NCBI GenBank assembly: GCA_963719425.1
Contig: OY970382.1
Location: forward strand, 244,862 to 308,861
DNA length: 64,000 nucleotides
Reading direction: 5' to 3'
Source of the DNA: an uncultured bacterium
GTDB lineage: Bacteria; Patescibacteriota; Minisyncoccia; UBA6257; 2-01-FULL-56-20
Both the position numbers and the translations under genes were made by a program. Below, piece by piece: positions 27,276-43,374 of the stretch. Under the pieces are notes generated by a model that searched no databases, was not told the DNA's origin, and was given only the letters and a program-made list of their open reading frames with translations. The number at the start of each line of letters is the position of its first letter. Within the stretch, counting starts at the first letter, position 1.

Positions 27276-27316
27276 ATACGTTTTTCTTTGGGGTTGTGTT
27301 GCGCTATAATCACGGT

Positions 27317-28684
27317 ATGGATGCCATACAGGGCATTTTGAATGCGGCAGGCGAGGTGTTTTGGTATGCGTGGTGGCTATGGATCCCCCTCATTTTGTTC
27401 CCGCTCTTTGAGTCCACGTGGCTTTTCTGGCGGCAGCAGGTTTTCAAGCGCGAATTGGAGTTCGTGCACATGGAGATCCGCATTCCCCGCGAGGTCAAGA
27501 GGAGCCCGAGGGCGATGGAGCAGGTACTCATGACCATCCACCAACTCCGGAACGAAGCGGCAGACCCGGAAGAAAAATGGTGGGACGGCGAGGTCACGCG
27601 CTGGTACGCGCTGGAGTTAGTAAGCTTCGGCGGAGATATCCACCTGTACGTACGCGCGTGGAGAAAGCAGAAGGAGATTATCCAGGCGGCGTTCTTTGCC
27701 CACTATCCTGACGTGGAGATCGTGGAAACGGATGATTATATTGACCGATTGCCTGCGAGCGTAGGAGAAATGTATAAAAGTGGCTACGACCTTTGGGGGT
27801 CCGAATTCGTCCTCGCGCGCGAACCTGCCTACCCTATCAGGAGCTACATGGATTTTGAATCGCCGGATGAGGAAAAACAGTTTGATCCCATGTCCACCTT
27901 CCTTGAGGTTCTCGGTAAGGTGAAGCGCGAGGAGGTTATATGCATTCAGTATCTCATCGCGCCGGCGAGCATGGATTGGAGAGACAGGTATCAACCCTTG
28001 GTTGAAGATTTGCGCACGAGGCATCAAAAGATTGGCGCGGCCGGAGGAGCGAAACACACCCTCGGGATGGAATTCCCGCACATCCTCCCAACATTCCCGG
28101 TGAAAAAGAGCGGAGAAGGTGAGGATAGTCTGCGCGTCATTGGAAGGGCGATCATGACGCGGACGCCGGGCGAGACAGATGTTTTAAAGGCGGTGGAGGA
28201 GAACATCGCTCTCCCGCCGTTTAATACCCTCATCCGGTTCGTCTATCTCTCGCCGAAGGAACTGTATTTTGACACGCTGCCGCGCCGTGGATTGCGCGGC
28301 GCATTCAACCAATATGCCGCTGCTGACCTTAACTGGTTTGAGCGGAACGAGAAAATCAGCACGAGGGTGAAGATATGGGACTTTCCGTTCTTTTTTCCGC
28401 ATGCACGCCTTGATCGCAGAAAAAACCGCGTGCTTGCGGACTATCGCGCGCGGGAAATCCCGCCGGAGACCTCCGTGGGGAAGCTTATCCGCTCCAAATT
28501 TTTGCATTGGGAGCATTCCCGTCGGGTTCTTTTGAGTGTGCGGTCGCTTGCGACGCTCTTCCATCCGCCAACCTATCAGGTGCTCACGGCACCACACATC
28601 AAACGGGTGGAGAGCAGGAAGGCGGGCGCGCCGGCGGGTCTTGCGATCTACGGCGGGGAAGAGGAAATGGAAAAGTTCAAATAA
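27317..28684 (+). CDS. hypothetical membrane-anchored protein (455 aa), first gene of the ATPase-1 operon
   Basis: N-terminal TM (VFWYAWWLWIPLILFPLF). No recognisable domain. TATAAT at 27305-27310 lies exactly 6 nt before the ATG. The ORF-track 5' extension to 26990 would overlap the divergent GlmU-like gene and was rejected. Confidence 0.6.
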   Translation: MDAIQGILNAAGEVFWYAWWLWIPLILFPLFESTWLFWRQQVFKRELEFVHMEIRIPREVKRSPRAMEQVLMTIHQLRNEAADPEEKWWDGEVTRWYALELVSFGGDIHLYVRAWRKQKEIIQAAFFAHYPDVEIVETDDYIDRLPASVGEMYKSGYDLWGSEFVLAREPAYPIRSYMDFESPDEEKQFDPMSTFLEVLGKVKREEVICIQYLIAPASMDWRDRYQPLVEDLRTRHQKIGAAGGAKHTLGMEFPHILPTFPVKKSGEGEDSLRVIGRAIMTRTPGETDVLKAVEENIALPPFNTLIRFVYLSPKELYFDTLPRRGLRGAFNQYAAADLNWFERNEKISTRVKIWDFPFFFPHARLDRRKNRVLADYRAREIPPETSVGKLIRSKFLHWEHSRRVLLSVRSLATLFHPPTYQVLTAPHIKRVESRKAGAPAGLAIYGGEEEMEKFK

Positions 28685-29259
28685 TGGTAATACTCACAAT
28701 TATCAAGTGGATCTGCATTGTGATTGTGATACTGCTCATTGTGGGCTTCATCTTTGCGTTTTATACGGGCTGGTTTTACCACCCGTTCATGGTGATTATC
28801 ACAATTATCAAGTGGATCTGCATTGTGATTATGATACTGCTCGCCGGGGGCTTCATCTTTGCGTTGTATAAGGGTTGGTCGTACCACCCGCGTTATGAAT
28901 TGGAAACGCGGAAAGCGAAGAAAATATTCACCCTGCGCGACGTGGTGACGAAGGAGCACTGGGAATCCATTGTGAGGAAGTTCTCGCTGGGAACGCCGGA
29001 GGCCGCGCGGGAAGCCGTCATTGAGGCCGATGCGCTCGTGGACACAGTGTTGAAGAGTATGGAAATTCCCGGGCAGCATCTCGCCGACCGGTTGTCCAAT
29101 CTGGAGCCGGAGGAAATTGCGTCGCTCGATCGGGCATGGCGGGCGCACCGCACGCGGAACGATCTCGTGCACACGCCGGGATTTGCGCTGACCGAAAAGG
29201 AGGCGCAAAAGACGCTTGAGGACTACGAGGCTTTTCTCAAAGATTTGGGAGTGCTATAA
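28684..29259 (+). CDS. two-TM membrane protein with duplicated TM segment and helical cytoplasmic C-terminal domain
   Basis: TAATG overlap with the upstream gene. Two near-identical segments (TIIKWICIVI(V/M)ILL..GFIFA.Y.GW.YHP). Confidence 0.55.
   Translation: MVILTIIKWICIVIVILLIVGFIFAFYTGWFYHPFMVIITIIKWICIVIMILLAGGFIFALYKGWSYHPRYELETRKAKKIFTLRDVVTKEHWESIVRKFSLGTPEAAREAVIEADALVDTVLKSMEIPGQHLADRLSNLEPEEIASLDRAWRAHRTRNDLVHTPGFALTEKEAQKTLEDYEAFLKDLGVL
28690..28893 (+). repeat. approximately 102-bp tandem direct duplication (about 90% identical) encoding two TM helices
   Basis: atcacaattatcaagtggatctgcattgtgatt ... appears at about 28693 and again at about 28796. Confidence 0.6.
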
Positions 29260-29266
29260 CGAGGCC

Positions 29267-30745
29267 ATGCCAAGAGCGGGAAAAATACAGATCATCAGAT
29301 ACGCGCCGCCGCCGCCGGAGCTGCCAATCTACGGGCAAGTGGATCCGGCGGAGGTTTCTTTCATCGGCCGCACGAACTATGTAGCGCAGCTTGAGGAGAA
29401 GAAATTTGTCTTTGGCATCAAGCGCCACGACCGGCGCCGGCATCTCTACATCGTGGGAAAAAGCGGCGTGGGGAAATCCAAGTTGCTTGAACTCCTCATC
29501 CGGCAGGATGTTGCGTACGGTCACGGGATGTGCATTATGGACCCGCACGGGGATGTGATAGACGCCGTCCTCGATTTCATTCCGGAGAATCGGATTAACG
29601 ACGTCGTGATCATTGATCCGACCGATATGAGCTATCCATCGTCCTTCAATCCTTTGCAGAACGTGGATCCCAGTTTCAAACACCAACTTGCGCAGGGATT
29701 GATCGAGGTGATGGAGAAGCAGTTCGGCGCGAACTGGACACCGCGCCTGGAGCATGTGTTCCGCTTCAGCGTCCTCGCACTCCTTGATTATCCGCATGCA
29801 ACGATGCGCGGGATGATTTCCATGCTCACGGACAGGAACTATCGACAGAAGGTGGTGGAATACATAGAGGACGACATGGTGAAGCGCTTCTGGGCCATTG
29901 AGTTCGCCGACTGGTCGGAAAAATTTGATACGGACGCGATCATCCCGCTCGTGAATAAGCTCGGCCAGTTCCTTTCCGACCCGCTTCTGCGGAACATCTT
30001 CGGCCAGAAAGAGAACAAGATCAATCTGGAAGAATTGATGGAGCAGAAAAAACTGATCTTCATCAATCTTTCCAAGGGTCGCCTCGGGGAAGAAAATTCA
30101 AGCTTCTTGGGCGCAATGTTCATTACGAAGATCAAGCAGGCCGGCATGGCACGCGCATCCATTCCCGAAAAGGACCGGCACGATTTTTATCTCTATGTGG
30201 ACGAGTTCCACAATCTCGTTACGGAAACCTTTGAGAACATTCTTACCGAAGCGCGGAAGTACGCATTGTGCCTTACGATAGCGCATCAATATATGGGCCA
30301 GCTTATCCAGCGCGTGCAGGCGGCAGTACTCGGGAACGTAGGAAGCATCATCATCTTCCGCATCGGCGGCGAGGATGCGGTCCACTTGAAGCCCGAAATG
30401 GCACCGATCTTTGACGTGAAAGACATGATCAACCTCGGCATGCAGGAATTTTTCATCAAAATGATGATTGACGGTGAAAGCTACGATCCTTTCTCTGCCG
30501 AAACACTCAAAGTGCTTCCGCCGCCGCACCGCTCGTTCCGAAAGGAAATCGTGGAACAGTCCCGGAAGAAGTACACCATCCCCGCCGACGCCGCGAAGAA
30601 ACTTATTCAAGAAGAAGAGGCCACCATCCTCCGGAGCGCTCAGGAAAAAGCCATTATTGAAGGCAAGCCGAGAGGCGGCGCGGGAGGCGGGGCGGGTGCC
30701 GCAAAAGAAGAGGCAGTAGACAAGACCCCCGAGCCTTTGATATAA
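29267..30745 (+). CDS. soluble FtsK/HerA-superfamily P-loop ATPase, VirD4/TraD (type IV coupling protein)-like, copy 1
   Basis: Walker A IVGKSGVGKSKLL, Walker B LYVDEFHNL, C-terminal sensor region LTIAHQYMGQL. No N-terminal TM. Paralogous to the gene at 40469..42430. Confidence 0.75.
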   Translation: MPRAGKIQIIRYAPPPPELPIYGQVDPAEVSFIGRTNYVAQLEEKKFVFGIKRHDRRRHLYIVGKSGVGKSKLLELLIRQDVAYGHGMCIMDPHGDVIDAVLDFIPENRINDVVIIDPTDMSYPSSFNPLQNVDPSFKHQLAQGLIEVMEKQFGANWTPRLEHVFRFSVLALLDYPHATMRGMISMLTDRNYRQKVVEYIEDDMVKRFWAIEFADWSEKFDTDAIIPLVNKLGQFLSDPLLRNIFGQKENKINLEELMEQKKLIFINLSKGRLGEENSSFLGAMFITKIKQAGMARASIPEKDRHDFYLYVDEFHNLVTETFENILTEARKYALCLTIAHQYMGQLIQRVQAAVLGNVGSIIIFRIGGEDAVHLKPEMAPIFDVKDMINLGMQEFFIKMMIDGESYDPFSAETLKVLPPPHRSFRKEIVEQSRKKYTIPADAAKKLIQEEEATILRSAQEKAIIEGKPRGGAGGGAGAAKEEAVDKTPEPLI

Positions 30746-30752
30746 TAATGTC

Positions 30753-30932
30753 ATGTTCGTGCACCCCGTTATTTTTGTCATTGGTGTTCTGTTCATCATT
30801 TACCTCGTTGCGGTCGATGTTCACATGCACCGGCGTGTCAAGCATTTGGAAAAGACCATGAGGAAGATGGAGGGCATGAACAGCGTGGAACATAAAAAGC
30901 CTCGCTGGGAGAATAAGGAGGATCTTTCATAG
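30753..30932 (+). CDS. small single-TM protein (59 aa)
   Basis: MFVHPVIFVIGVLFIIYLVAVDVHMHRRVKHLEK... Preceded by TATAAT (30741-30746) 6 nt before the ATG. Below the ORF-track size cutoff. Confidence 0.3.
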   Translation: MFVHPVIFVIGVLFIIYLVAVDVHMHRRVKHLEKTMRKMEGMNSVEHKKPRWENKEDLS

Positions 30933-31017
30933 CGCGACCAGCACCTCGCATTAAAAAAACATTAAAAACTATTTGACGCGGGATGTGGCGTTGCTATAAT
31001 TAAGGAAATCTTTGGGA

Positions 31018-31461: not shown

Positions 31462-31516
31462 ATCGCCACCCTATCACATCACCCGTTAAAACTTTGTTAA
31501 ATGTCCGACCCACAAC

Positions 31517-31527
31517 GGTGTTATACT
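31517..31527 (+). promoter_or_regulatory. extended -10 element TGtTATACT, 6 nt upstream of the ATG at 31534 (leaderless-type geometry)
   Basis: Read directly. The same -10/N6/ATG geometry occurs at 27305/27317 and 30741/30753. Confidence 0.35.
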
Positions 31528-31533
31528 GTTTCT

Positions 31534-33318
31534 ATGGCGGGCGAGACCAGAATTTGCCAAAACTGCAAGCAATCGTTCACGATTGAAGTCGAAGACTTTG
31601 ATTTCTATAAGCGAGTCGCCGTCCCGCCGCCGACCTTCTGCCCAGAGTGCCGAGCACAAAGAAGGATGCTGTGGCGAAACGAACGCGCCCTATATAAGAG
31701 AGCCTGCAACGCTCCCGGCCATACCGAAATGCTCATTGCGAACATTTCTGCCCAAACCCCAACGCCGGTGTACGATCAAGATTACTGGTGGTCAGATAAC
31801 TGGGATCCTCTTTCCTATGGCAGAGAATACGATTTCAGCAAACCTTTCTTTAATCAGTTGAAAGATCTTTTCCGCGTTTTCCCGCTTCCCAATGTAGTTA
31901 ACCTGGAATCGGTGAACAGCGACTATTGCAATTTCACCTATCAGTGCAAAAATTGCTATCTTGCCTTCGCGAGCAATCTCAACGAAGATAGTGCCTATCT
32001 TTGCCATGCGGAAAGCTGCAAAAGCTCCTTTGATCTTCTCGGCTGCAATTCGGATCAGTTTTGTTACGAATCCATTCATTCTCATAATTCGTACCAATCC
32101 GCATATTTGTTCTACTCCAACGGCTGCATACATTGCCGCTTTCTCTATAACTGTCGGAACTGCCACGATTGCTTTGGCTGTGTGAATTTGAGGAATGCGG
32201 AATATCAGATCTTCAATACGCAATACTCAAGAGACGAGTACGAGAGGAAGGTCAAAGAATTGGATTTGGGCAATTACTACACTAAGGAGGGCGTAGCGGC
32301 GCGATTCGGGAATCACATAAAGGCCTATCCCAAAAAGTACGCGACGGCCGTTCAAACCGTCGGGAGCACAGGGGACTACATTAGCCAACTAAAAAACTCT
32401 CATTTTTGCTTTGACTGCGAAGGTCCTCTTGAGGATTCAAAATATCTCATTTACGGTGTGCCGAATGCTAAGGATTGTTTTGACGGATATGGGATCGGGG
32501 AGGGAGCGGAACTCATTTATGACACGACTGTCGCCGGTGCATCTGCCAGCAGATCGCTCTTCTCCTTTGCGGCGGTCGGTGGTCGTTCCCATCAATATTC
32601 GTACTTTTGCCGCGGGTGCTCGAATATATTCGGCTGCATCGGCATCCGCAATAAGGAATATTGCATTCTCAATAGACAGTATAGTAAAGACCAGTATCTC
32701 GCATTGCTTCCGAAAATAATTGACCACATGAACGCGATACCTTACGTTGACGCGAAGGGCCGAACCTACGCGTACGGCGAGTTTTTCCCTTACGAGATAG
32801 GCCATTTTGCTTACAACGAAACAATCGCGCAGGAATATTTTCCACTGACGAAAGAGCAAGCTATATCTCAGGGCTACCGATGGTTGGATGTTGAAGAAAA
32901 GAGCCACGGAAAGACCAAGGATCCCGCCCATCTCCCCGCCCACACAAGAGACGTATCCGATGACATTCTCAAAGAAACGATCGGCTGTGCCCATGAGGGG
33001 AAGTGTGCCGAACAGTGCACTGTCGCCTTCAAGATAATCCCACAAGAACTTCAGTTTTACAAAGCGATGAATTTGCCATTGCCGCGCCTTTGCCATAATT
33101 GCCGCCACTACGAAAGATTGAAGCAACGCAACCCCTTCAAGCTTTGGGAAAGAGAGTGCAGCTGCAATGGCAGGGCGTCAAAAGATGGTATATATACCAA
33201 TGCCACTAACCATTTTCACAATGAGAATCGTTGTCCCAACACTTTTCAGACCTCCTATGCCCCGGACCGGCCGGAGATCGTCTACTGCGAACAGTGTTAC
33301 AACACGGAGGTAGCATAG
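31534..33318 (+). CDS. Cys-rich multi-zinc-ribbon protein, array member 1
   Basis: N-terminal ribbon CQNCKQSFTIEVEDFDFYKRVAVPPPTFCPECRAQRRM. Trp-rich YDQDYWWSDNWDP..YGREYDF. Two Cys-ladder repeats ending CFGC.NLRN..Y.IFN.QYS..EY. Conserved YGEFFP..FAYNET.AQ.YFPLTK. A second ribbon C..C..AFKIIPQELQFYKAMNLPLPRLCHNCR. C-terminal knuckle RPEIVYCEQCYN. Start chosen at MAGETRICQNC by analogy with its paralogs; an alternative ATG lies at 31501. Confidence 0.75.
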   Translation: MAGETRICQNCKQSFTIEVEDFDFYKRVAVPPPTFCPECRAQRRMLWRNERALYKRACNAPGHTEMLIANISAQTPTPVYDQDYWWSDNWDPLSYGREYDFSKPFFNQLKDLFRVFPLPNVVNLESVNSDYCNFTYQCKNCYLAFASNLNEDSAYLCHAESCKSSFDLLGCNSDQFCYESIHSHNSYQSAYLFYSNGCIHCRFLYNCRNCHDCFGCVNLRNAEYQIFNTQYSRDEYERKVKELDLGNYYTKEGVAARFGNHIKAYPKKYATAVQTVGSTGDYISQLKNSHFCFDCEGPLEDSKYLIYGVPNAKDCFDGYGIGEGAELIYDTTVAGASASRSLFSFAAVGGRSHQYSYFCRGCSNIFGCIGIRNKEYCILNRQYSKDQYLALLPKIIDHMNAIPYVDAKGRTYAYGEFFPYEIGHFAYNETIAQEYFPLTKEQAISQGYRWLDVEEKSHGKTKDPAHLPAHTRDVSDDILKETIGCAHEGKCAEQCTVAFKIIPQELQFYKAMNLPLPRLCHNCRHYERLKQRNPFKLWERECSCNGRASKDGIYTNATNHFHNENRCPNTFQTSYAPDRPEIVYCEQCYNTEVA

Positions 33319-33341: not shown

Positions 33342-35126
33342 ATGACCGCCGAGACCAAGACCTGCCAGAACTGCAAGCATTCGTTTGTGATAGAGCAGGA
33401 GGATGTGAATTTTTATCAGAAGATGACTGTCCCGCCGCCGACGTTCTGTCCGCTCTGCCGCGCCCAGCGGCGGATGGCATGGCGCAACGAGCGGGCGCTC
33501 TTCAAGCGGAAAAGCGATTTTGCAGGGAAGGAGATCTTTTCCGCGTTTGCGCCGGACGCACCAGTCAAGGTTTATGAGAAAGAGGTGTGGCTTACTGACC
33601 AGTGGGATCCGATGACGTACGGGCGCGATTATGATTTTTCGCGGCCGTTCTTTGAGCAATTCAAGGAGTTGCTCTATACTGTCCCACTCAAAAACCTGAA
33701 TTTGGTCGGCGGCACAAACAGCGATTATTGCAACAACTTTACCGACGCGAAAAATTGCTACTTGATTTTCAATGGAAATTATTCGGAGGATTGCATGTAC
33801 GGGAACGGCTTTACTAATTCAAAGCATTGCTTTGACACCTCGCATGTTGCAAAGTGCGAGCGTTGTTACGGCAGCTTTTGGCTCACCGGATGTCACAATG
33901 TCGTTTATTCTTCGCAGTGCGAGAATTCCTACGACCTGGCGTTTTGCCGCGATTGTGTAGGGTGTAACAGTTGCTTTGGATGTGCGGGGCTTCGCAACAA
34001 GTCATACCGTATTTTTAATGCGCAATACTCAAAAGAGGATTATGTGAAAAAAATAAAGGAGTTTGATCTGGGGTCGTATGAGGTCGTAGAGCAGCTGAAG
34101 CGGAAGGCGGGCGAGTTTTGGAGCACTGTTCCGATCAAATACATTGAAGGATTGCAAAATACCAACGTTTCCGGCAACTACATTGACCACTCGCGGAATG
34201 TGAAGCAAAGTTTCTTGGTGCGCGAGAGTGAGAACATCCATTACAGCCAGTATGTGCATGAACTGCCGGGAAGCCGCGATGTATGGGATTACACCGCATG
34301 GGGCGATTCCAACGAGCTTGTGTATGAGTGTTCCGCTTGTGGCATCGGCACGCACAACATAAAGTTTTGCTATAACGCACAGGAGAACGTGCACAACATT
34401 GAGTATTCCTATATGTGCGCCGGCTCCTCAGACCTTTTTGCCTGCGTGGGATTGCGGAAAAAACAATACTGCGTTTTTAATAAGCAATATTCAAAAGAGG
34501 AGTATGGCGCGTTAGTAGCTAAGATAAAATCCCATATGGACGCGATGCCGTATGCGGACAAAAAGGGGAGAGTATATAAATATGGTGAATTCTTTCCGGT
34601 TGAGCTCTCGCCCTTCGCGTACAACGAGACGCTCGCCCAACAGTATTTTCCCCTTACAAAACAAGCGGTGGAGGCAGCGGGTTTCTTCTGGCGTGATCCC
34701 GCCGAACGCAGTCACACTGCAACCGTTGAGGCCGCGAACCTGCCCGAAAATATCAAGAACGTAAAGGACGATATCGCCACAGCAACGATTGGTTGCGCGC
34801 ACAAGGGTTCATGCAACGACCAGTGCACCATCGCGTTCCGTATCATTCCCGACGAACTGAACTTCTACCGTTCCATGGGTATTCCGCTGCCGCGCCTCTG
34901 TCCCAACTGCCGCTTTGAGGAACGTATAGCGCAGCGGACGAAGCTCGCGGTGTTTCCTCGCGATTGCGAGTGCGCGGGAATCGCATCTGATAACGGGAAA
35001 CACAAAAACGCCGGTAAACATTTTCACGGCGAGGGCCATTGCCCCAATAAATTTGAAACTTGTTATCCGCCGGAGAGACCGGAGATCGTCTACTGCGAGC
35101 AGTGCTATAATGCCGAGGTGGCATGA
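33342..35126 (+). CDS. Cys-rich multi-zinc-ribbon protein, array member 2
   Basis: Same architecture: CQNCKHSFVIEQEDVNFYQKMTVPPPTFCPLCRAQRRM ... RPEIVYCEQCYNAEVA. Confidence 0.75.
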   Translation: MTAETKTCQNCKHSFVIEQEDVNFYQKMTVPPPTFCPLCRAQRRMAWRNERALFKRKSDFAGKEIFSAFAPDAPVKVYEKEVWLTDQWDPMTYGRDYDFSRPFFEQFKELLYTVPLKNLNLVGGTNSDYCNNFTDAKNCYLIFNGNYSEDCMYGNGFTNSKHCFDTSHVAKCERCYGSFWLTGCHNVVYSSQCENSYDLAFCRDCVGCNSCFGCAGLRNKSYRIFNAQYSKEDYVKKIKEFDLGSYEVVEQLKRKAGEFWSTVPIKYIEGLQNTNVSGNYIDHSRNVKQSFLVRESENIHYSQYVHELPGSRDVWDYTAWGDSNELVYECSACGIGTHNIKFCYNAQENVHNIEYSYMCAGSSDLFACVGLRKKQYCVFNKQYSKEEYGALVAKIKSHMDAMPYADKKGRVYKYGEFFPVELSPFAYNETLAQQYFPLTKQAVEAAGFFWRDPAERSHTATVEAANLPENIKNVKDDIATATIGCAHKGSCNDQCTIAFRIIPDELNFYRSMGIPLPRLCPNCRFEERIAQRTKLAVFPRDCECAGIASDNGKHKNAGKHFHGEGHCPNKFETCYPPERPEIVYCEQCYNAEVA

Positions 35127-36835
35127 CGACCGGAATCGAAACGCGCACGTGCCAGAATTGCAAGCAGGCGTTTGTCATTGATCCGGAGGACTTTCAGTTC
35201 TACGGGAAAGTTAGCGTCCCTCCGCCGACCTTTTGCCCGGACTGCCGTTTTCAACGGCGGCTTTTATTTTGGAATCCAATCTATCTTTACAAGCGGCCCT
35301 GCGATTTGTGTAAGAAGTTTAATGTGTCGGCGTATGCACCTGACGCGCCCTATACCGTGTATTGTCCTTTGTGTTGGTGGAGCGACAGCTGGGACCCATT
35401 GGAATACGGACGGGAGTACGATTTCAAACGCCCATTCTTTGAACAACTGAACGAGCTATGGCACACGGTGCCGTTGTGCGGCTTGTCTATGGATTTGCCG
35501 ACCGCGCGCTCCTCGCCCTATAATCACGACGCCGGCTATCTAAAAAATTGTTATCTCCTTTTTCATGCCGATACTTGCGAGGATTGTGCGTACGGTTACT
35601 TCTTGGACAAATCTCGAATGCTTTTTGATTGCACCGCCATGGAGCAGAGCGAGTACGGTTATGACTCCATGCACTCGTACAAAACAAACCGGTGTATCGG
35701 AACGCGGGACCAGCTCTCGGAATCGGTAGAGTGCCTCTTCTGCCGCGACTGCCAGGGCTGCCAGAGCTGTTTCGCCTCCGCGAACCTGAAGGGTCAGAAA
35801 TATTATGCGTGGAACAAGCCGCTTTCCAAACAAGAATATCTTACGGAAATCGGTAAGTATGATTTGGGATCCTACCGCGCCTATCAAGCGTTGCAGAAAA
35901 AAGCCGCGGAGCACTGGAAGACGCAGATACCCAAATCGGAATACAACGAGTTCGTGGAGAACTGCACCGGCTCAAATGTTTTCTTCTCCAGGAACGCCAA
36001 GGATTGCATTGAGGTGTACAACGTGGAGGATGGTCGGTATTGTTACCGCATGTTCGCGCCTACCAACAAGGATTGCTATGACGTTTCCATGTGGGGGAAG
36101 AATCTCTCGTTGACGTACGATAGCTGTGTGGTAGGAGAAGATTCCACACGGCTCCGGTTTTCCTATCAGTCCGGCATCAACCTTAGCGATGCTGAATATT
36201 GTCAACTGTCCACGGGTGGTTCCCACCATTTTGGCTGCGTTTCAATCAAGAAAGGGGAATATCGGATTTTCAACAGGGCATATTCCGCAAAGGAGTATGA
36301 GGCGCTAACGGGAAAAATCCGGAAGCATATGAATGAAATGCTGTATGCGGATGCGCGAGGTAACGTCTATCGCTATGGCGAGTTTTTCCCACCGGAGATG
36401 TCACCCTTCGCCTATAATGAAACGCTGGCGCAGAATTTCTTTCCGCTCACGAAGGAAAAAATCGCCGCAAAGAAATACGTGTGGCGAAATATTGAAGTGA
36501 AAGAAATGGAGGCAACCATGTCGTCAGCCGATTTGCCCGATCATATAAAAGATGTCCCTGACGACATTCTCCAGGAAACCATAAAGTGCGAAACGTGCAG
36601 CCGCTCGTATCGGATCGCTGAGATGGAACTGGCCTTCCTTCGGCAGATGAAGCTGTCCTTGCCGCGCCGCTGCCCTTTCTGCCGGGTAAACGAGAAATTG
36701 AACATTTGGGTGAAGGACAATGAACGCAACCGGCGCACGTGTGCCGATTGCGGCGTCGCGATGGAGTCAAAGTATCGGGAAGACGAAGCGCCGGAGGTAT
36801 ATTGCCGGAAGTGTTATTTGCAAAGGATAATGTAG
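35123..36835 (+). CDS. Cys-rich multi-zinc-ribbon protein, array member 3
   Basis: ATGA overlap with member 2. N-terminal ribbon plus a second ribbon PCDLCKK...PYTVYCPLCWWSD. C-terminus diverged (EVYCRKCYLQRIM). Confidence 0.75.
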   Translation: MTTGIETRTCQNCKQAFVIDPEDFQFYGKVSVPPPTFCPDCRFQRRLLFWNPIYLYKRPCDLCKKFNVSAYAPDAPYTVYCPLCWWSDSWDPLEYGREYDFKRPFFEQLNELWHTVPLCGLSMDLPTARSSPYNHDAGYLKNCYLLFHADTCEDCAYGYFLDKSRMLFDCTAMEQSEYGYDSMHSYKTNRCIGTRDQLSESVECLFCRDCQGCQSCFASANLKGQKYYAWNKPLSKQEYLTEIGKYDLGSYRAYQALQKKAAEHWKTQIPKSEYNEFVENCTGSNVFFSRNAKDCIEVYNVEDGRYCYRMFAPTNKDCYDVSMWGKNLSLTYDSCVVGEDSTRLRFSYQSGINLSDAEYCQLSTGGSHHFGCVSIKKGEYRIFNRAYSAKEYEALTGKIRKHMNEMLYADARGNVYRYGEFFPPEMSPFAYNETLAQNFFPLTKEKIAAKKYVWRNIEVKEMEATMSSADLPDHIKDVPDDILQETIKCETCSRSYRIAEMELAFLRQMKLSLPRRCPFCRVNEKLNIWVKDNERNRRTCADCGVAMESKYREDEAPEVYCRKCYLQRIM

Positions 36836-36881: not shown

Positions 36882-38624
36882 ATGGCTGCAGAGGCTAAAA
36901 CTGAAGCTGAGACCAAGGTCTGCGAGGCTTGCAAGGGAGAGTTCGCGGTTGAACCGGAGGACCTTGCGTTCTACGGGAAGTTCGGTGTGCAGGTGCCGAA
37001 GATGTGCCCGCGGTGCCGCGCGCGGCGGCGGATGGCGTTCCGGAACGAGCGCGTGTTCTACAAGCGTAAGTGCGACAAGTGCGGGCGCGAGGTGGTTTCC
37101 ATGTACAGTCCGGGGAAGCCGTATATGGTGTATTGCTATGAGTGCTGGTTCGCGGACGATTGGGATGCGTTGAGCTACGGGATGGAATACGATCCCGCGC
37201 GGCCGTTCATGGAACAGTTCCGCGAACTTTGGGAAAAGGTGCCGAAAGTCGCGCTGGTTTACATGCGGAGCGTGAACTCGGAATACGTGAACATCTCGGC
37301 GGACAACAAGGACTGCTACATGCTGGTGGAATCGTCCAACAACGAGGGGTGCATCAATTGTTATTGGGTTCAGCAGTGCCGTGATCTTGTGGATGTCTCG
37401 TTCTCGCATCAGACGGAGCTTTCCTATGAGTGCGACGATTGCTTCAATTGCTACGGACTGCAGTATGCGAAAGGTTGCCACGATTGCCGCAATGGTTATT
37501 TCTTGTTTGACTGCGTGGGATGCTCGGATTGCATCGGTTGCACGAACCTCCGCAGCAAGCAGTATCATATTTGGAACGAGCCGCACTCTAAAGAGGAATA
37601 TGAAGAGCTTCTCGCGGAGATGAAGCTTGATACGCACGCCGGGGTGGAGGCGGCGCACAGAAAGTTTGAGGAATTCTTGAAAACCCAGCCGCACAAGTTC
37701 GCGGAGATTATCAATGCGCCCGGTTCAACCGGCAATTACATCAAGAACGCCAAGAATTGCCGGCAGATTTTCCACTGCTACGACGCGGAGGATGCGAAAT
37801 ACGGCATCCACGTGTGGCGCGACGCAAAGGACTGCATGGATGTGGATACGGCGGGCCGTGGCGCCCGATTGATCTACAACTCCATCAATTCGGGCATTGA
37901 GGTTTCAAATTATGTCGCCTGTGCGCAGTGCTGGACGTGTTCGTTCATGGAATATTCCTATTATTGCTTCAACTGCAACCATTGCTTCGGCTGTGCCGGA
38001 CTTCGGAAGAAAGATCGCTGCATTCTGAACCACGAGTACGATAAGGCGTCGTATGAACGTTTGCGCGACGCCATCGTGTCCGAGATGAAAGCAAAAAGGG
38101 AGTACGGCGAGTTTTTCCCGATTGCGATTAGCGCGTTCGGTTACAACGAGAGTGCCGCACAGGAGCAGTTTCCACTCACGAAGGCGGAGGCGATTGCGCG
38201 CGGGTGCAAGTGGGAGGATACTCCGCGCGGCACGTATGGGAAGGGAACAATCGGATGGGACAAGGTTCCCGATACCTATGATGGGTTCAATCCGACCAAG
38301 CACGTTTTCACCTGCACGAATTGCAAAAGGAATTATCTTGTCATTCCCAACGAGGCCACGTTCTACAAGAAGCTCGCGATTCCCGTGCCGCGCCTATGCC
38401 CCGATTGCCGCCACGAACGCCGCTTTGCCGCCCGCGGCCCGAACCGTGTTTCGCGGCAGCACTGCGATTGCGCGGGCACGACGTCGGAGAACGGACGATA
38501 TCGCAACACGCGGGCCCATGCCCACGCAAACGCCCCATGCCCCAACGAGTTTTGGACAAGCTATGCTGCAAACGACGAGCGGATCGTCTACTGCGAGCAG
38601 TGCTACAATGCAGAGGTGGTGTAG
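36882..38624 (+). CDS. Cys-rich multi-zinc-ribbon protein, array member 4 (GC-richer)
   Basis: VCEACKGEFAVEPEDLAFYGKFGVQVPKMCPRCRARRRM, CDKCGREVVSMYSPGKPYMVYCYECW ... RIVYCEQCYNAEVV. Noticeably higher GC than its siblings. Confidence 0.75.
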   Translation: MAAEAKTEAETKVCEACKGEFAVEPEDLAFYGKFGVQVPKMCPRCRARRRMAFRNERVFYKRKCDKCGREVVSMYSPGKPYMVYCYECWFADDWDALSYGMEYDPARPFMEQFRELWEKVPKVALVYMRSVNSEYVNISADNKDCYMLVESSNNEGCINCYWVQQCRDLVDVSFSHQTELSYECDDCFNCYGLQYAKGCHDCRNGYFLFDCVGCSDCIGCTNLRSKQYHIWNEPHSKEEYEELLAEMKLDTHAGVEAAHRKFEEFLKTQPHKFAEIINAPGSTGNYIKNAKNCRQIFHCYDAEDAKYGIHVWRDAKDCMDVDTAGRGARLIYNSINSGIEVSNYVACAQCWTCSFMEYSYYCFNCNHCFGCAGLRKKDRCILNHEYDKASYERLRDAIVSEMKAKREYGEFFPIAISAFGYNESAAQEQFPLTKAEAIARGCKWEDTPRGTYGKGTIGWDKVPDTYDGFNPTKHVFTCTNCKRNYLVIPNEATFYKKLAIPVPRLCPDCRHERRFAARGPNRVSRQHCDCAGTTSENGRYRNTRAHAHANAPCPNEFWTSYAANDERIVYCEQCYNAEVV

Positions 38625-38631
38625 TTAAGAC

Positions 38632-40425
38632 ATGGGGCCTGAAACGAAAACCTGTCAAAATTGCAAGCAGCCGTTCGTCATTGATCTGGAGGATTTTCGG
38701 TTTTACGAGAAAATTAATGTCCCGCCGCCCACGTGGTGCCCAGATTGCCGGCTGCAACGGCGGCTTTCGTTTCTGAACCACCGCACGCTTTATAAGCGGA
38801 ATTGCAGCTCTTGCGGGAAAAGCATGGTGTCGCTGTATGACACCGGCGCGCCTTTTCCCGTGTATTGCCCGGACTGCTGGTGGTCGGACAAATGGGATTC
38901 AAAAAGCTACGGGCGGCCGTATGATTTTTTGCTGCCGTTCTTTGAGCAATTCAAGCGGCTAAGCATGGGAGTTCCGCGCATGTCACTTGAGGGGCTCCAT
39001 GAGACGTGGATCAATAGCGAATACAACAACCTTGCCCACGAACTCAAAAATTGCTATCTGCTTTTCAATTCGGACGTGGACGAGAATTGCCTGTATGGTT
39101 CGGAGGTGGAGAGCTCAAATAATTGCGTGGATACGACCATGATAGAGTCATCGGAACTTTGCTATGGAAGCATCAATCTCGTGAACTGCCACCGCGTGTT
39201 TTTCTCCGCCGATTGTGTGGACTGCCACAATGTGTGGTTCGGAAGAGACCTCGCGAATTGCAACGACTGCTTCGGCTGCACGAATTTGCGCAACCGAAAG
39301 TATCATATTTTCAACAAATCATATTCCAAGGAAGATTATGCAAAGGAGATAGCGACATTCGGTTTAAGTTCGCGGGCCGGCATCGCAGAATGCATGAAGC
39401 GGACGCAGGCGCTTTCTCTAAGTTTCCCCCGCAAGTTCATGCACGGGAGGCACAACGTGAATGTGTCGGGCGACTATGTGAATTACTCAAAAAATACCCA
39501 CGATGCCTACATTGCCCTCGGCGCCGAGGACTGCCGCTATGCGATGTGGCTCATTATAAAGCCGAACAGGGACTGCTACGATTTTACCCAATTCGGCGGC
39601 AATGCCGAGCGCGTGTACGAGTCACTCGTGTGCGGGAAGGGCGTGAGCGATACCAAATTCAGCATAAATTGCGTTGATGAGATTTCTTCTGTGACATACT
39701 CCGACCATTCCTTTTGTTCAAATGCCTTCGGCTGCGTGTCACTGAAGAAAGGGAACAAGTACTGCATTTTGAACAAGCAGTATGCCGAGGATGAATATCG
39801 AGCGCTCGTGCCGAAGATCGTCGCCCATATGAACGAGATGCCGTATGTTGACCGACAAGGAAGAGAATATCGCTACGGGGAATTTTTCCCGCCGGAGTTG
39901 TCTCTCTTCGCCTACAACGAAACGGAGGCGCAGGGATATTTCCCGCTTACGAAAGCAGAGGCGCTGCGGCAGGGCTTCTTGTGGAAAGAGCCGGATACGA
40001 AAAGCTATAAAATTACGTTAAGCGGTGCGCAGATTCCTGACTCGCTTCGGGATACGCCGGATGCCATCGTGGACGTGGACGAGGTGCTTGAATGCGCCCA
40101 CAAAGGACAATGTAACGAGCAGTGCGCCACGGCATTCCGCATCATCCCCGACGAACTTACGTTCTACAAGAAATTTTCGCTGCCGATTCCCAATCTGTGC
40201 TCCAATTGCCGCTCCGCAGCGCGGCTTGCGCTACGAAACGGACACAAACTTTGGCACAGGAAATGCGAGTGCGCCAGACAAAAGTCCGATAACGGCGCGT
40301 ATCAAAATGCGGCGGCACATTTCCACGCCCAAGGCCACTGTCCCAACGAATTTGAAACTTCCTACGCTCCCGACCGACCCGAGATCGTCTACTGCGAGCA
40401 GTGCTATAACGCGGAGGTGGTATAG
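38632..40425 (+). CDS. Cys-rich multi-zinc-ribbon protein, array member 5
   Basis: CQNCKQPFVIDLEDFRFYEKINVPPPTWCPDCRLQRRL, CSSCGKSMVSLYDTGAPFPVYCPDCWW ... RPEIVYCEQCYNAEVV. Confidence 0.75.
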   Translation: MGPETKTCQNCKQPFVIDLEDFRFYEKINVPPPTWCPDCRLQRRLSFLNHRTLYKRNCSSCGKSMVSLYDTGAPFPVYCPDCWWSDKWDSKSYGRPYDFLLPFFEQFKRLSMGVPRMSLEGLHETWINSEYNNLAHELKNCYLLFNSDVDENCLYGSEVESSNNCVDTTMIESSELCYGSINLVNCHRVFFSADCVDCHNVWFGRDLANCNDCFGCTNLRNRKYHIFNKSYSKEDYAKEIATFGLSSRAGIAECMKRTQALSLSFPRKFMHGRHNVNVSGDYVNYSKNTHDAYIALGAEDCRYAMWLIIKPNRDCYDFTQFGGNAERVYESLVCGKGVSDTKFSINCVDEISSVTYSDHSFCSNAFGCVSLKKGNKYCILNKQYAEDEYRALVPKIVAHMNEMPYVDRQGREYRYGEFFPPELSLFAYNETEAQGYFPLTKAEALRQGFLWKEPDTKSYKITLSGAQIPDSLRDTPDAIVDVDEVLECAHKGQCNEQCATAFRIIPDELTFYKKFSLPIPNLCSNCRSAARLALRNGHKLWHRKCECARQKSDNGAYQNAAAHFHAQGHCPNEFETSYAPDRPEIVYCEQCYNAEVV

Positions 40426-40448
40426 CGCTGGCAAAATCGCCGAAACCG

Positions 40449-40457
40449 TGGTATAAT
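40449..40457 (+). promoter_or_regulatory. extended -10 promoter TGgTATAAT, 11 nt upstream of the ATPase-2 ATG
   Basis: gtggtataatgggagcagaat ATG, read directly. Confidence 0.4.
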
Positions 40458-40468
40458 GGGAGCAGAAT

Positions 40469-42430
40469 ATGGAGGAAGCCCCTGACAAAAACGTAATTTA
40501 TTTCGCACGAACCGATTTTCGCAATCAAGATCGGCTTTTTGGTATCAAGCGGACCGACCGGCGCCAGCACATGTACGTCATAGGAAAAACGGGCACTGGT
40601 AAAAGCGCGCTCCTCAACAATATGGCTGTGCAGGACATCGCGAACGGCGAGGGGCTTTGCGTCGTTGATCCGCACGGCGAGCTTGTGGAGGGACTCATGA
40701 GAAGGATCCCGGAGGAGCGAATGAAAGACGTTATCTATTTCAATCCGGCCGATACGGATTTTCACATCGGCTTCAACGTGCTGGAGCTGCCTGACCCGAG
40801 GTACAAGCACCTTGTGGCGTCGGGACTCATGGGAATTTTCACGAAGATCTGGGCAGGTGTCTGGTCGCCGCGCATGGAATACATTTTGAATAATTGCGTG
40901 CTCGCGCTCTTGGATACTCCAGGTTCCACGCTCCTTGGTATCCCTCGGCTTCTGACCGACAAAGATTACCGGCAGAAGATCATCGCGAACATAAAGGACC
41001 CCGTCGTGAAGGCCTTCTGGATCCATGAATTTGAAGGATGGCAGGACCGGTTCAGGAACGAAGCCATCGCGCCGATACAAAACAAGGTAGGCCAATTTCT
41101 TTCCACCTCTCTCGTCCGCAACATCGTCGGTCAGTCAAAGAGCACCGTGGACATTTTTGACGTGATGAACGAGGGGAAGATTTTCCTCGTGAACGTTTCC
41201 AAGGGCCGCATCGGAGAGGATAACTCCGCGCTTTTGGGTGCCATGCTCATCACGAAGATTCAGCTTGCTGCCATGGAACGCGTCCGCATTCCCGAAGAGG
41301 AACGCGTGGACTTTTACCTTTATGTGGACGAGTTTCAGAACTTCGCTACGGATTCCTTCGCGGGAATTCTTTCCGAAGCGCGAAAGTACCGTTTGGACCT
41401 TATCCTTGCGCACCAGTATGTCGGGCAGCTCGTTACTGATACTTCCACGAGGGTGCGCGACGCGATCTTCGGCAACGTGGGGACGATGATCATATTCCGC
41501 GTGGGTGCCACCGATGCAGAATTTCTGGAGAACGAGTTTACACCAGAGTTCACGATAGAAGACATCGTGAACCTCCCGAACTACTCCATCTATCTGAAGC
41601 TCATGGTGAGCGGGGTGACCTGCCGCCCGTTTTCTGCGATCACGCTCCCACCGCTTCAGGTGAAAACCTCCGCGGTGGTGGAATCCGAGATCATCAAAAT
41701 GGCGCAGAAGCGCTATTCCCGGCCGCGCGAGGTTGTGGAAGAGGAAATTAACCGTTGGAGCGGGGTAATGGGACCGCCTGCGTCTGCGGAAGGAGAAAAG
41801 AAAGAGGGAGGCGCAACAAGATACGAAGCGATATGCTCTTCGTGTGGCAAGATGACGACGTTGCCGTTTGAACCGACCCCCGGCCGGCCGGTGTATTGCC
41901 GCGAGTGTCTGAAAAAAATTGAGGCCGGCGAACTTCAGCCGGTGCGGATGCCGCGCGTGCCGGTCGCACGCGCAAGGCCGCAAAAGAAATACGCGGAAGA
42001 TTTGAGTTATCTCGGCATTGAATTCCCGGAACAGGGAGCGCCAAGCGAATCGCAGCCAGCGGTGAGAAGGGCGCCCGCGCCAGTGCGTCCCATGGGCGAA
42101 GGGGCGGGGACATGGACGCCGGTTTCCGGACCAAAAGCAGCTACCGTGCCAGCCGCCGCACCGGCTGCCGCGCCATCCGAGCCGGTTGGGCCGACACTTT
42201 CGCTGTCCGAATTGAAGTCGGCCGACCGGAAACCGAAGTTGAAGAAAACACAACAGCGCGAGGAGATTAATATTTCCGAGCTTCGGGAGGCGATCAAGGC
42301 GTCTTTGAACGCAGATGCCGGTGCGAGCTCCACGCAAACCGCCGGGACAGAGAAGGATGGTACTGCCCCCGCTCCCGTCCACGCTGGCGAGGAGGAGGAA
42401 AACGGCGAAGAGGAGCACTTGACGCGCTAA
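40469..42430 (+). CDS. VirD4/TraD-like P-loop ATPase copy 2, with C-terminal zinc ribbon and a long Ala/Pro/Glu-rich tail
   Basis: Walker A VIGKTGTGKSALL, Walker B LYVDEFQNF, sensor LILAHQYVGQL. C-terminal CSSCGKMTTLPFEPTPGRPVYCRECL (C-x2-C-x17-C-x2-C), then an approximately 180-aa low-complexity tail. Confidence 0.75.
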   Translation: MEEAPDKNVIYFARTDFRNQDRLFGIKRTDRRQHMYVIGKTGTGKSALLNNMAVQDIANGEGLCVVDPHGELVEGLMRRIPEERMKDVIYFNPADTDFHIGFNVLELPDPRYKHLVASGLMGIFTKIWAGVWSPRMEYILNNCVLALLDTPGSTLLGIPRLLTDKDYRQKIIANIKDPVVKAFWIHEFEGWQDRFRNEAIAPIQNKVGQFLSTSLVRNIVGQSKSTVDIFDVMNEGKIFLVNVSKGRIGEDNSALLGAMLITKIQLAAMERVRIPEEERVDFYLYVDEFQNFATDSFAGILSEARKYRLDLILAHQYVGQLVTDTSTRVRDAIFGNVGTMIIFRVGATDAEFLENEFTPEFTIEDIVNLPNYSIYLKLMVSGVTCRPFSAITLPPLQVKTSAVVESEIIKMAQKRYSRPREVVEEEINRWSGVMGPPASAEGEKKEGGATRYEAICSSCGKMTTLPFEPTPGRPVYCRECLKKIEAGELQPVRMPRVPVARARPQKKYAEDLSYLGIEFPEQGAPSESQPAVRRAPAPVRPMGEGAGTWTPVSGPKAATVPAAAPAAAPSEPVGPTLSLSELKSADRKPKLKKTQQREEINISELREAIKASLNADAGASSTQTAGTEKDGTAPAPVHAGEEEENGEEEHLTR

Positions 42431-43034: not shown

Positions 43035-43083
43035 ATAAGGGTGTATAATGGAGGTAAAAAGGTCGGGAATAAAAACCACGCAT

Positions 43084-43374
43084 ATGGCGAAACAGGTTAT
43101 TAAGAAAGGCGGAAAGCGCGAGCCGTTTCGGGCCGAGAAGTTGAAAAAGTCCGTCCGCATGGCGTGCAAGGATGCTCATGTGGGTGCAGTGCGGGCGAGG
43201 AAAGTGGTGACGAAGGTCGCGGGCCCCGTGCTGCGCTTTGCGGCAAAGAGGAAAACCGTCAAGGTCGCAACATTGCGGAAGAAAGTGATCGCGGGATTGC
43301 GAAAGATTGAACCGACTGTGGCGAAGGCATGGCTTCGGTACGAGCGTAGGCGGCGGGTCCACAGACGCCGGTGA
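43084..43374 (+). CDS. stand-alone ATP-cone domain protein with a basic C-terminal tail
   Basis: MAKQVIKKGGKREPFRAEKLKKSVRMACKDA matches the ATP-cone consensus (V.KR.G..E.F...KI..S...A). TATAAT at 43044-43049. The ORF-track start at 43048 overlaps the -10 element. Confidence 0.5.
   Translation: MAKQVIKKGGKREPFRAEKLKKSVRMACKDAHVGAVRARKVVTKVAGPVLRFAAKRKTVKVATLRKKVIAGLRKIEPTVAKAWLRYERRRRVHRRR

Follow-up and report, generated by a model that had tools for sequence, protein, structure and literature searches.

What does a zinc ribbon do behind the motor of a VirD4-like ATPase, and does it tie that ATPase to the Cys-rich proteins encoded beside it? The question is raised by a stretch of 64,000 nucleotides from an uncultured bacterium of the Patescibacteriota (GenBank assembly GCA_963719425.1, contig OY970382.1, positions 244,862 to 308,861 of the forward strand; the whole stretch is called the window here, and coordinates count from its first letter), in which the gene of such an ATPase, ATPase-2, follows an array of five related genes whose products we call A1 to A5. 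An initial annotation had proposed that ATPase-2 and the array proteins carry ribbons of one type and that this shared ribbon is a homotypic docking module. Our analysis leads to a different reading, which we hold with somewhat more belief than doubt: the ribbon is generic and would serve as a tethered recruitment element on an orphan, anchor-less, coupling-protein-like ATPase whose likely clients are the fast-evolving array proteins, and not as a homotypic docking site. Within this reading, the arrays and the ribbon-bearing ATPase are genuine conserved neighbours in many Patescibacteria genomes, and the array ribbons are divergent descendants of the same ribbon fold, placed inside a duplicated double-ribbon module. 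The two ATPases and the parts of ATPase-2 are as follows:

29267..30745, plus strand: ATPase-1, ribbon-less paralog of ATPase-2 (PF10412, PF02534 and PF01935 matched, PF23477 not matched)
40469..42430, plus strand: ATPase-2, 653 amino acids, soluble TrwB/VirD4-like P-loop ATPase, in the order core, tether, ribbon, disordered tail
41768..41815, plus strand: disordered tether of ATPase-2, residues 434-449, from core to ribbon (predicted local distance difference test score, pLDDT, below 50 in the AlphaFold2 (AF2) model)
41834..41908, plus strand: CxxC-x17-CxxC zinc ribbon of ATPase-2 (PF23477/TIGR04272), residues 456-480, CSSCGKMTTLPFEPTPGRPVYCREC
41951..42430, plus strand: C-terminal tail of ATPase-2, residues 495-653, Pro/Ala/Glu-rich and mostly disordered, by pLDDT, composition and conserved columns

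The ATPase-2 ribbon is real, the coordinates first given for it, 41835-41910, having been off by one or two bases. PF23477 (zf_Tbcl_2) matched ATPase-2 at 55.8 bits in the whole protein and at 62.5 bits in the fragment, over profile positions 3-35 of 37, and TIGR04272 ('CxxC-x17-CxxC') matched at 57.3 bits; the curated cut-offs are 27 bits for PF23477 and 36 bits for TIGR04272, and those of two families met below are 24 bits for PF13451 and 20.5 bits for PF10412. By these curated criteria, the ribbon is a canonical PF23477/TIGR04272 member. Residues C456, C459, F467, P469, Y476, C477 and C480 are invariant across 43 ATPase-2 homologs, and the four ribbon Cys among them (C456, C459, C477 and C480) are present in 60/60 complete Paceibacteria-type homologs. 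ATPase-2 has more than 8,000 homologs, the best 120 of which (64-100% identity) all carry PF23477, and public annotation from several sources already names such homologs 'CxxC-x17-CxxC domain-containing protein'.

The domain extends far beyond this ATPase. When 1.84 billion cluster representatives were searched with the ribbon alone (40 residues), 2,800 proteins came up at E <= 0.001, of which the top 150 are non-ATPase proteins of 87-423 amino acids, nearly all with two to five tandem ribbons and scoring 60-116 bits; ten matches that were sampled all carried PF23477 with no other Pfam family over its cut-off, and two of the ten are named Thermoplasmatota proteins. These matches rule out that PF23477 occurrences beyond the ATPase and array families are artefacts. 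The ATPase-2 ribbon is 38-59% identical to most of the top-scoring ribbons of these short multi-ribbon proteins, some of them archaeal. It has the four-Cys spacing of the CxxC-x17-CxxC family exactly and matches the full-length profile, but it is a single ribbon fused behind a TrwB-like ATPase, whereas its closest matches are mostly tandem ribbons in small proteins. Small Methanosarcina mazei proteins of this family bind zinc, as shown by inductively coupled plasma mass spectrometry (PMC12704099); for the ATPase-2 ribbon, zinc binding is predicted. Compared with solved structures, the ribbon sequence gave chance-level matches only, from which no structure-based function could be drawn. A literature search on TIGR04272, PF23477, zf_Tbcl, DUF8128/PF26449 and the combination of DEAD-box with a C-terminal zinc site found nothing. 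TIGR04272 is presumably frequent at DEAD-box helicase C-termini, although the search brought no confirmation. In itself, therefore, the ribbon is ordinary: a catalogued and very widespread zinc-binding domain.

ATPase-2 has its Walker A motif (GKTGTGKS) at residue 39 and its Walker B motif (YLYVDE) at residue 283, matches PF10412 at 46.8 bits over residues 30-346, and also matches PF12696, PF02534 and PF01935. Foldseek placed its core closest to TrwBdeltaN70 (E 2e-12, TM-score 0.6 normalised to the target), followed in order by DndH-C, HerA, Cag-beta and DotL. In the AF2 model, pLDDT is about 60-86 in the core (residues 1-433), below 50 in the linker (434-449), about 80-83 in the ribbon (451-490) and below 50 again at 495-600; the ribbon has two strands (452-455 and 462-465) and one helix (478-485), and a further helix is predicted in the tail at 602-621. 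As modelled, the ribbon is an autonomously folded module on a disordered tether of about 15 residues behind a hexameric-type ATPase core, with a disordered tail of about 160 residues after it. Across Paceibacteria-type Patescibacteria, this arrangement of core and ribbon shows strong conservation, ATPase-2 as a whole having 65-88% identity and many invariant columns. The tail keeps two short motifs across the 43 homologs, DL..LGIEF (about 510-518) and SLSELKP (about 579-585), with conserved columns at L512, G516, I517, E518, L579, L582, L605 and L613; together with the 602-621 helix, these motifs are candidate linear docking motifs.

With the type IV coupling proteins TrwB, VirD4, TraD and DotL, ATPase-2 shares the nucleotide-binding and all-alpha core fold and, following the motor, a C-terminal extension that is long and variable. 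Unlike them, it has no N-terminal membrane domain, its extension bears a zinc ribbon, and it is accompanied by a PF26449 protein and a ribbon-less paralog. Neither ATPase-1 nor ATPase-2 contains a membrane segment (no 19-residue window at a Kyte-Doolittle mean of 1.6), and canonical coupling proteins require their membrane domain, mutants of TrwB, PcfC and MobB that lack it being non-functional in conjugation (PMC7431656). The open reading frames (ORFs) of the window that were scanned, not every small one among them, include no VirB4-type or relaxase family, and ATPase-2 falls far below the NCBIfam cut-offs for SXT_TraD (47.2 vs 366 bits), CD1115 (39 vs 250) and CedD (18.6 vs 600). Because it lacks the membrane domain, an association with a type IV secretion system (T4SS) or relaxase, and an equivalog score, ATPase-2 is better called coupling-protein-like than VirD4 or TraD. 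ATPase-1, about 43% identical to ATPase-2 and its paralog, has neither the C4 motif nor a PF23477 match, as had been noted from the start, and about 35 ATPase-1 homologs in other loci are likewise ribbon-less. Patescibacteria have been reported to hold 5,713 VirD4-like homologs in 2,918 genomes, about two per genome, with 148 near virB4; their role is an acknowledged open question, and exaptation was not ruled out by the authors (PMC12102498). The ATPase-1/ATPase-2 pair fits this orphan population.

We then compared the ATPase-2 ribbon with those of the array proteins, whose genes and CxxC-x17-CxxC sites are these:

31501..33318, plus strand: array protein A1, 605 amino acids, 36 Cys, N-proximal x17 ribbon degenerate
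33342..35126, plus strand: array protein A2, 594 amino acids, 34 Cys, N-proximal x17 ribbon without any of the four Cys
35123..36835, plus strand: array protein A3, 570 amino acids, an x17 ribbon at each end, 86% identical ortholog in locus L001
36882..38624, plus strand: array protein A4, 580 amino acids, 42 Cys, N-proximal x17 ribbon, 90% identical ortholog in L001
38632..40425, plus strand: array protein A5, 597 amino acids, N-proximal x17 ribbon, stop codon 43 bp 5' of the ATPase-2 start
31705..31785, plus strand: degenerate ribbon site of A1, residues 69-95, the first Cys alone kept and the loop two residues longer, no Pfam match
33513..33587, plus strand: degenerate ribbon site of A2, residues 58-82, zero Cys, frame ...PVKVY...W.TD.W retained
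35300..35374, plus strand: N-proximal CxxC-x17-CxxC ribbon of A3, residues 60-84, identified by spacing, no PF23477 match
36740..36814, plus strand: C-terminal compact CxxC-x17-CxxC ribbon of A3, residues 540-564 (PF23477 19.6 bits, LIM 22.2 bits)
37071..37145, plus strand: N-proximal CxxC-x17-CxxC ribbon of A4, residues 64-88, CDKCGREVVSMYSPGKPYMVYCYEC (PF23477 top match at 17.2 bits, sub-threshold)
38803..38877, plus strand: N-proximal CxxC-x17-CxxC ribbon of A5, residues 58-82, CSSCGKSMVSLYDTGAPFPVYCPDC (PF23477 top match at 20.0 bits, sub-threshold)

The initial annotation had described the A4 and A5 ribbons, and the C-x2-C-x17-C-x2-C spacing is exact in both; the A5 motif, however, lies where it is listed here and not at 38811-38880, and the two copies in A3 had been missed. 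Of the wording said to be common to all, a CGK start and a 'P..VYC' knuckle, CSSCGK and PVYC are indeed common to ATPase-2 and A5, but ATPase-2 reads GRPVYC. The C-terminal knuckle RPEIVYCEQC, attributed to every array protein, is literal in A1, A2 and A5 only, A4 having ERIVYCEQC and A3 APEVYCRKC; nor is it a plain x17 ribbon in A1, A2, A4 and A5, where it belongs to an expanded module, CxC-(about 15 residues)-HxH-(3-4 residues)-C-x17-C-x2-C, with conserved His. In a six-frame scan of the whole 64 kb, the C-x2-C-x17-C-x2-C spacing occurred seven times: five occurrences are the array and ATPase-2 ribbons, a sixth is part of the Cys-rich A4 core, and the seventh, at 116-190, is in a frame that is not coding. 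Since five of the seven are these ribbons, the motif is rare in the window and clusters at this locus.

That the ribbons are of one type was borne out at the level of profiles. Ribbon profiles were built from 160 related loci, with 60 ATPase ribbons and 59 array N-proximal ribbons, and hhalign aligned the ATPase profile to the array profiles with 96.0% (N-proximal) and 96.8% (C-terminal) probability. In 100 column shuffles with the four Cys columns left in place, the probability averaged 8 and reached at most 79.7, so that the relatedness exceeds cysteine spacing. PF23477 is the top Pfam match for A4, A5 and the A1 C-terminal module and the second-best, after LIM, for the A3 C-terminal ribbon, but the A1 C-terminal module reaches only 14.1 bits (profile positions 11-35), the N-proximal ribbon of A3 gave no match when scanned as an isolated fragment, and all array scores in the window are below 27 bits; a few array homologs elsewhere do reach the cut-off (P0154, P0180). 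Being sub-threshold yet profile-related, the array ribbons are divergent relatives, not PF23477 members by the curated criterion. Within the 2.2 Mb of sampled neighbourhoods, the ribbon profiles matched the ATPase-2 and array families only.

A specific likeness between the two, by comparison, did not emerge. Over 25 positions, the identities to the ATPase-2 ribbon are 11 for A5, 9 for A4 and 8 for each of the A3 ribbons, four in each case being Cys, and the 11/25 of A5 is unspecific because it is no higher than the identity to the top-scoring multi-ribbon proteins. When the ATPase-2 ribbon was scored directly, A5 reached 12.7 bits and the other array ribbons less, vs at least 60 bits for each of the best 150 unrelated proteins; an ATPase-specific profile gave 6.6-13.5 bits on the window's array ribbons, below the 14-20 bits that generic Pfam gives the four it detects. 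What was found is a generic, widespread ribbon, the very outcome that the initial annotation had named as speaking against its claim. Since 'CGK' and 'VYC..C' are family-wide consensus, the likeness reflects common domain ancestry, not a matched pair.

The array proteins form a family of more than 6,000 members, of which every source-named one is called 'hypothetical' and all named sources are Patescibacteria; no Pfam family matches the family as a whole. The window paralogs share 34-48% mutual identity and contain 34-42 Cys each, and two central repeats in the array proteins end in a common FGCxxLRxKxYxIxNxxYSKEEY motif. Further modules at the ends of the proteins are the following:

38653..38748, plus strand: N-terminal CxxC-x24-CxxC ribbon of A5, weakly PF13451 (zf_Tbcl)-like
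31555-31650 in A1; 33363-33458 in A2; 35150-35245 and 36587-36682 in A3; 36921-37016 and 38313-38408 in A4: equivalent CxxC-x24-CxxC ribbons
40264..40422, plus strand: expanded C-terminal module of A5, CxC...HxH...C-x17-C-x2-C, by its Cys/His pattern
33157-33315 in A1; 34965-35123 in A2; 38463-38621 in A4: equivalent expanded C-terminal modules

PF13451 scored 17.0-18.1 bits on the x24 ribbons of A1, A2 and A5, below its cut-off, and two array homologs carry a precomputed PF13451 match. The N-terminal double-ribbon module (x24 then x17) has a C-terminal duplicate (BLASTP E 1e-12 over 83 amino acids), as seen between 38632-38920 and 36560-36835 of the window and at the ends of all five array genes, and the N-proximal and C-terminal ribbon profiles align at 98.9% hhalign probability. 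The AF2 model of A5 shows a rigid core of the beta-solenoid type with double-ribbon modules at both ends, residues 1-120 all scoring at least 90, and a predicted template modelling score (pTM) of 0.89. The model's sole structural neighbours are beta-solenoid proteins, namely the Tenebrio antifreeze protein 1ezg, curli CsgA 8c50, phi29 gp12 3gq7 and left-handed beta-helix acyltransferases, with which it has in common a repetitive, strand-rich core. The end-modules might cap the solenoid, and the expanded C-terminal module, to judge by its Cys and His pattern, may be a two-metal site.

Across the family, the array ribbons have a consensus of their own, LYKRxCxLCGKxxISxYxxxxPxxVYCxxCWWSDKW. The four Cys of the N-proximal x17 site are kept in 59 array-family ORFs; in 51 of 112 ORFs with a recognisable N-terminus, all four are gone while the sequence frame is retained. 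Half of the family would do without zinc ligation there. At the C-terminus, 26 ORFs have a compact x17 site and 62 an expanded one, and C545, C570, C588 and C591 are conserved or invariant. The array ribbons are probably integrated structural end-modules. The array content itself turns over faster than the flanking ATPases, with six genes in L001, one in L003 and five in the window. In L001, whose ATPase-2 is 86% identical to ours, orthologs of A3 and A4 are found at 86-90% identity and the best matches of A1, A2 and A5 reach 46-49%; in L003 (ATPase-1 94%, ATPase-2 86%), the single array gene reaches no more than 51.5% identity with any array gene of the window.

To what extent do arrays and ATPases belong together in genomes? 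Loci were seeded on ATPase-2 with one genome per species, and ATPase-1, ATPase-2, array genes and the upstream partner up564 were detected by tblastn and ORF analysis; the counts for ribbon-bearing and ribbon-less ATPases are restricted to loci flanked by 8 kb or more on each side. The two genes upstream of ATPase-1 are these:

27314..28684, plus strand: up564, conserved upstream partner of 456 amino acids with an aromatic-rich hydrophobic N-terminus
28684..29259, plus strand: small protein with two membrane segments (two hydrophobic 19-mers) between up564 and ATPase-1, start approximate and overlapping the up564 stop codon

Array genes accompany ribbon-bearing ATPase-2 in 22/29 loci and ribbon-less ATPase-2 homologs in 0/7 (Fisher p = 4e-4). 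The expectation that ATPases lacking the ribbon would also lack arrays is borne out in these counts, but phylogeny confounds the association: every ribbon-less homolog is distant (40-58% identity), and most are long and Saccharimonadia-type. L069 (12925-16275) departs from the pattern, in that two opposite-strand array genes lie about 1.6 kb from a ribbon-less ATPase homolog of 734 amino acids with an up564-like neighbour. Of 42 array-holding loci, 27 have an array gene no more than 150 bp from ATPase-2, and the strand is invariably shared. The genes come in two recurrent orders, that of the window, up564 - membrane protein - ATP1 - array(n) - ATP2, and ATP2 - array(n) - ATP1, so that the arrays sit between the paralogs in both. 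The tie between arrays and ATPase that had been proposed thus has independent support in conserved gene order, while the ribbon-based link is unsupported. A literature search found no description of this locus architecture.

The partner up564 has 612 homologs, and the precomputed family PF26449 is assigned to 119 of the 120 listed. It lies directly upstream of the ATPase in single-ATPase and two-ATPase lineages alike, and since it adjoins the ATPase in the former as well, up564 and the ATPase look like an ancestral pair. The order up564 - small membrane protein (mem250) - ATP1 is co-conserved in L003, L011, L070, L110 and L119. In the Nomurabacteria-type loci L017, L029, L030 and L042, ATPase-2 is directly preceded, about 2 kb upstream, by a co-directional DnaK/Hsp70 gene with more arrays beyond; this ORF of about 640 amino acids had been considered as a component of the cluster and, being DnaK/Hsp70, was taken as lineage-specific synteny.

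Seeding loci on the array family in metagenomes gave the converse view. Either ATPase was present in 16/80 array-seeded loci overall and in 7/24 of those of at least 15 kb, which marks the array family as dispersed and multi-copy. The ATPases are nonetheless its sole recurrent neighbour: any other family occurs in at most 4 of 61 ATPase-free loci, the commonest of them, housekeeping-type genes (MreB-like and ribonucleotide-reductase-like by sequence), included. Retention of the N-proximal ribbon was unrelated to adjacency (kept/lost 14/16 where adjoining ATPase-2 and 40/32 elsewhere; Fisher p = 0.51), and the ATPase ribbons are near-identical with and without adjacent arrays (L004 vs L012; L041 vs L038). 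The loss of Cys, the lack of association and the near-identical ribbons speak against a docking code between ribbons; docking through the C-terminal array module, which is universally retained, may be compatible with these results.

Altogether, the results are consistent with a Patescibacteria-specific machine, made up of ATPase-2, ATPase-1, the PF26449 protein and small membrane proteins, that would derive from a type IV coupling protein and would have been decoupled from the type IV secretion system. The tethered ribbon and the tail would act as a flexible arm for recruitment, much as the C-terminal extensions of DotL and TraD do, and would bind a partner or substrate heterotypically; the extension of DotL is a substrate-recognition module that binds IcmSW, DotN and LvgA and recognises effectors (PMC7251119). 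The co-oriented, tightly spaced array genes with their fast turnover would most likely supply this machine with variable clients or adaptors.

Several points weigh against this reading. The recruitment-arm and client roles are drawn from gene neighbourhood and analogy, and the mean pLDDT of the ATPase-2 model is 64.5, a moderate confidence. The array proteins have no signal peptide, no membrane segment and no recognised secretion signal. Ribbon-bearing ATPases lack neighbouring arrays in 7/29 loci (L012, L014, L021, L038, L040, L049 and L071), among them ATP1-ATP2 pairs with nothing between (L038, L040 and L071), and arrays are absent from the single-ATPase lineages of the 'up564-ATP2(ribbon)' type (L049-L056), so the partner of the ribbon cannot be array-specific everywhere. 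Most array genes, to go by the 7/24 longer array-seeded loci that hold either ATPase, lie away from the machine. Finally, the strong conservation of ATPase-2 would equally suit a housekeeping nucleic-acid function.

This last point leads to the best-surviving alternative, one we judge unlikely but worth keeping in sight, namely that the ribbon binds DNA or RNA as an appendage of a translocase and that both families share a class of ligand without binding each other. The C-terminal DNA-recognition module of FtsK, its gamma domain, is a winged helix of known DNA specificity on a flexible linker. The ATPase-2 module resembles it as a small autonomous domain behind a disordered linker on the C-terminal side of an FtsK/HerA-superfamily motor and differs in being a zinc ribbon and not a winged helix. 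The nearest relatives of the ATPase core, TrwB, DndH and HerA, are DNA motors; the basic ribbon residues K461, R473 and K483 are conserved; Arg-rich segments such as CRLQRRLSFLNHRTLYKRNC occur in the double-ribbon modules of the array proteins, with Arg/Lys-rich helices beside the ribbons; a core cellular process would suit the extreme conservation of ATPase-2; and the presumed frequency of TIGR04272 on DEAD-box helicases would point the same way. However, our literature search found no nucleic-acid-binding evidence for PF23477, many PF23477 members are stand-alone small multi-ribbon proteins without an assigned role, and no relaxase, nuclease or recombinase in the locus points to DNA processing.

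It is improbable, in our estimate, that there is no functional link at all, that is, that a dispersed array family accumulates in a permissive spot between duplicated ATPases and reuses a common ribbon type by coincidence. The 17/24 array loci of at least 15 kb without ATPases, the array copy number that varies from one to six or more among close relatives, the empty ATP1-ATP2 pairs and the generic nature of the ribbon would all be expected in that case. Yet the adjacency persists at 56-86% ATPase-2 identity, in two gene orders, always co-directionally and often with gaps below 50 bp, and no other gene recurs beside the array family; by a rough estimate, chance would place an array there in fewer than 10% of genomes (20-kb window, genome of about 0.9 Mb, 3-4 array loci), vs 76% observed. 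The weakest alternative, homotypic docking, in which the ATPase-2 ribbon would bind the like array ribbons directly and the array proteins would be clients, adaptors or regulators, can draw on the common fold family, the exclusive profile matches, the conserved neighbourhood, the ribbon-bearing paralog (and not ATPase-1 alone) being very often the immediate array neighbour, and an ATPase ribbon that is modelled as tethered and free to dock, but it is very improbable given array scores far below those of thousands of unrelated proteins at 60 bits or more, an ATPase-specific profile that does worse than generic Pfam, the frequent loss and adjacency-independent retention of the array site, ATPase ribbons unaltered by the presence of arrays, ribbon-bearing single-ATPase lineages without arrays, and array ribbons that are modelled as rigid and integrated.

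The remaining features around the locus bear less directly on ATPase-2:

30753..30932, plus strand: ORF of 59 amino acids with one membrane segment, directly 3' of ATPase-1, a putative gene only
31018-31461, minus strand: PemK/MazF-like toxin gene between ATPase-1 and the array (PF02452, E 9e-10), with no obvious antitoxin partner identified
43048-43374, plus strand: stand-alone ATP-cone protein of 108 amino acids, downstream of ATPase-2
43441-44589, minus strand: protein of 382 amino acids with repeated PKD domains, downstream of ATPase-2
6056-17881, minus strand: giant ORF of 3,941 amino acids with bacterial Ig-like surface, MBG, polysaccharide deacetylase and purple-acid-phosphatase N-terminal domains, probably encoding a cell-surface protein

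Two sigma-70-like sites, both consensus matches only and both with an extended -10 TG, were found on the plus strand, one at 40428-40457 immediately 5' of ATPase-2 (10/12) and one at 30973-31000 about 500 bp 5' of A1 (11/12). Given the former, ATPase-2 may also have transcription of its own, although the match does not settle the operon structure. The parts of the window on either side of the locus hold housekeeping and cell-envelope genes of chromosomal type (carbamoyl-phosphate synthase, dihydroorotate dehydrogenase, GlmS-type and sugar-nucleotide enzymes, and an ABC transporter). PADLOC assigned no defence-system membership to the ATPases, the two-membrane-segment protein, the array proteins or up564; both ATPases matched generic mad8/HerA P-loop models only, the two-membrane-segment protein gave one marginal Cas11e match (E 0.003), and the array proteins and up564 had no match.

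For the orphan VirD4-like ATPases of Patescibacteria, the locus adds context. The Paceibacteria-type homolog pair consists of a ribbon-bearing and a ribbon-less paralog, both without a membrane anchor, which travel with a PF26449 protein and bracket an undescribed, fast-evolving family of Cys-rich zinc-ribbon/beta-solenoid proteins; this context yields concrete candidates for what the orphan motors act on. More speculatively, and as a long shot, Paceibacteria-type Patescibacteria may possess an unrecognised transport or remodelling system that is independent of T4SS, in which two soluble ATPases, the PF26449 partner and small membrane proteins would handle ribbon-capped beta-solenoid cargo or adaptors, the ribbon modules being the handle for the ribbon and tail of ATPase-2. 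If this were true, it would offer a possible delivery route for variable host-interaction proteins in these epibionts.

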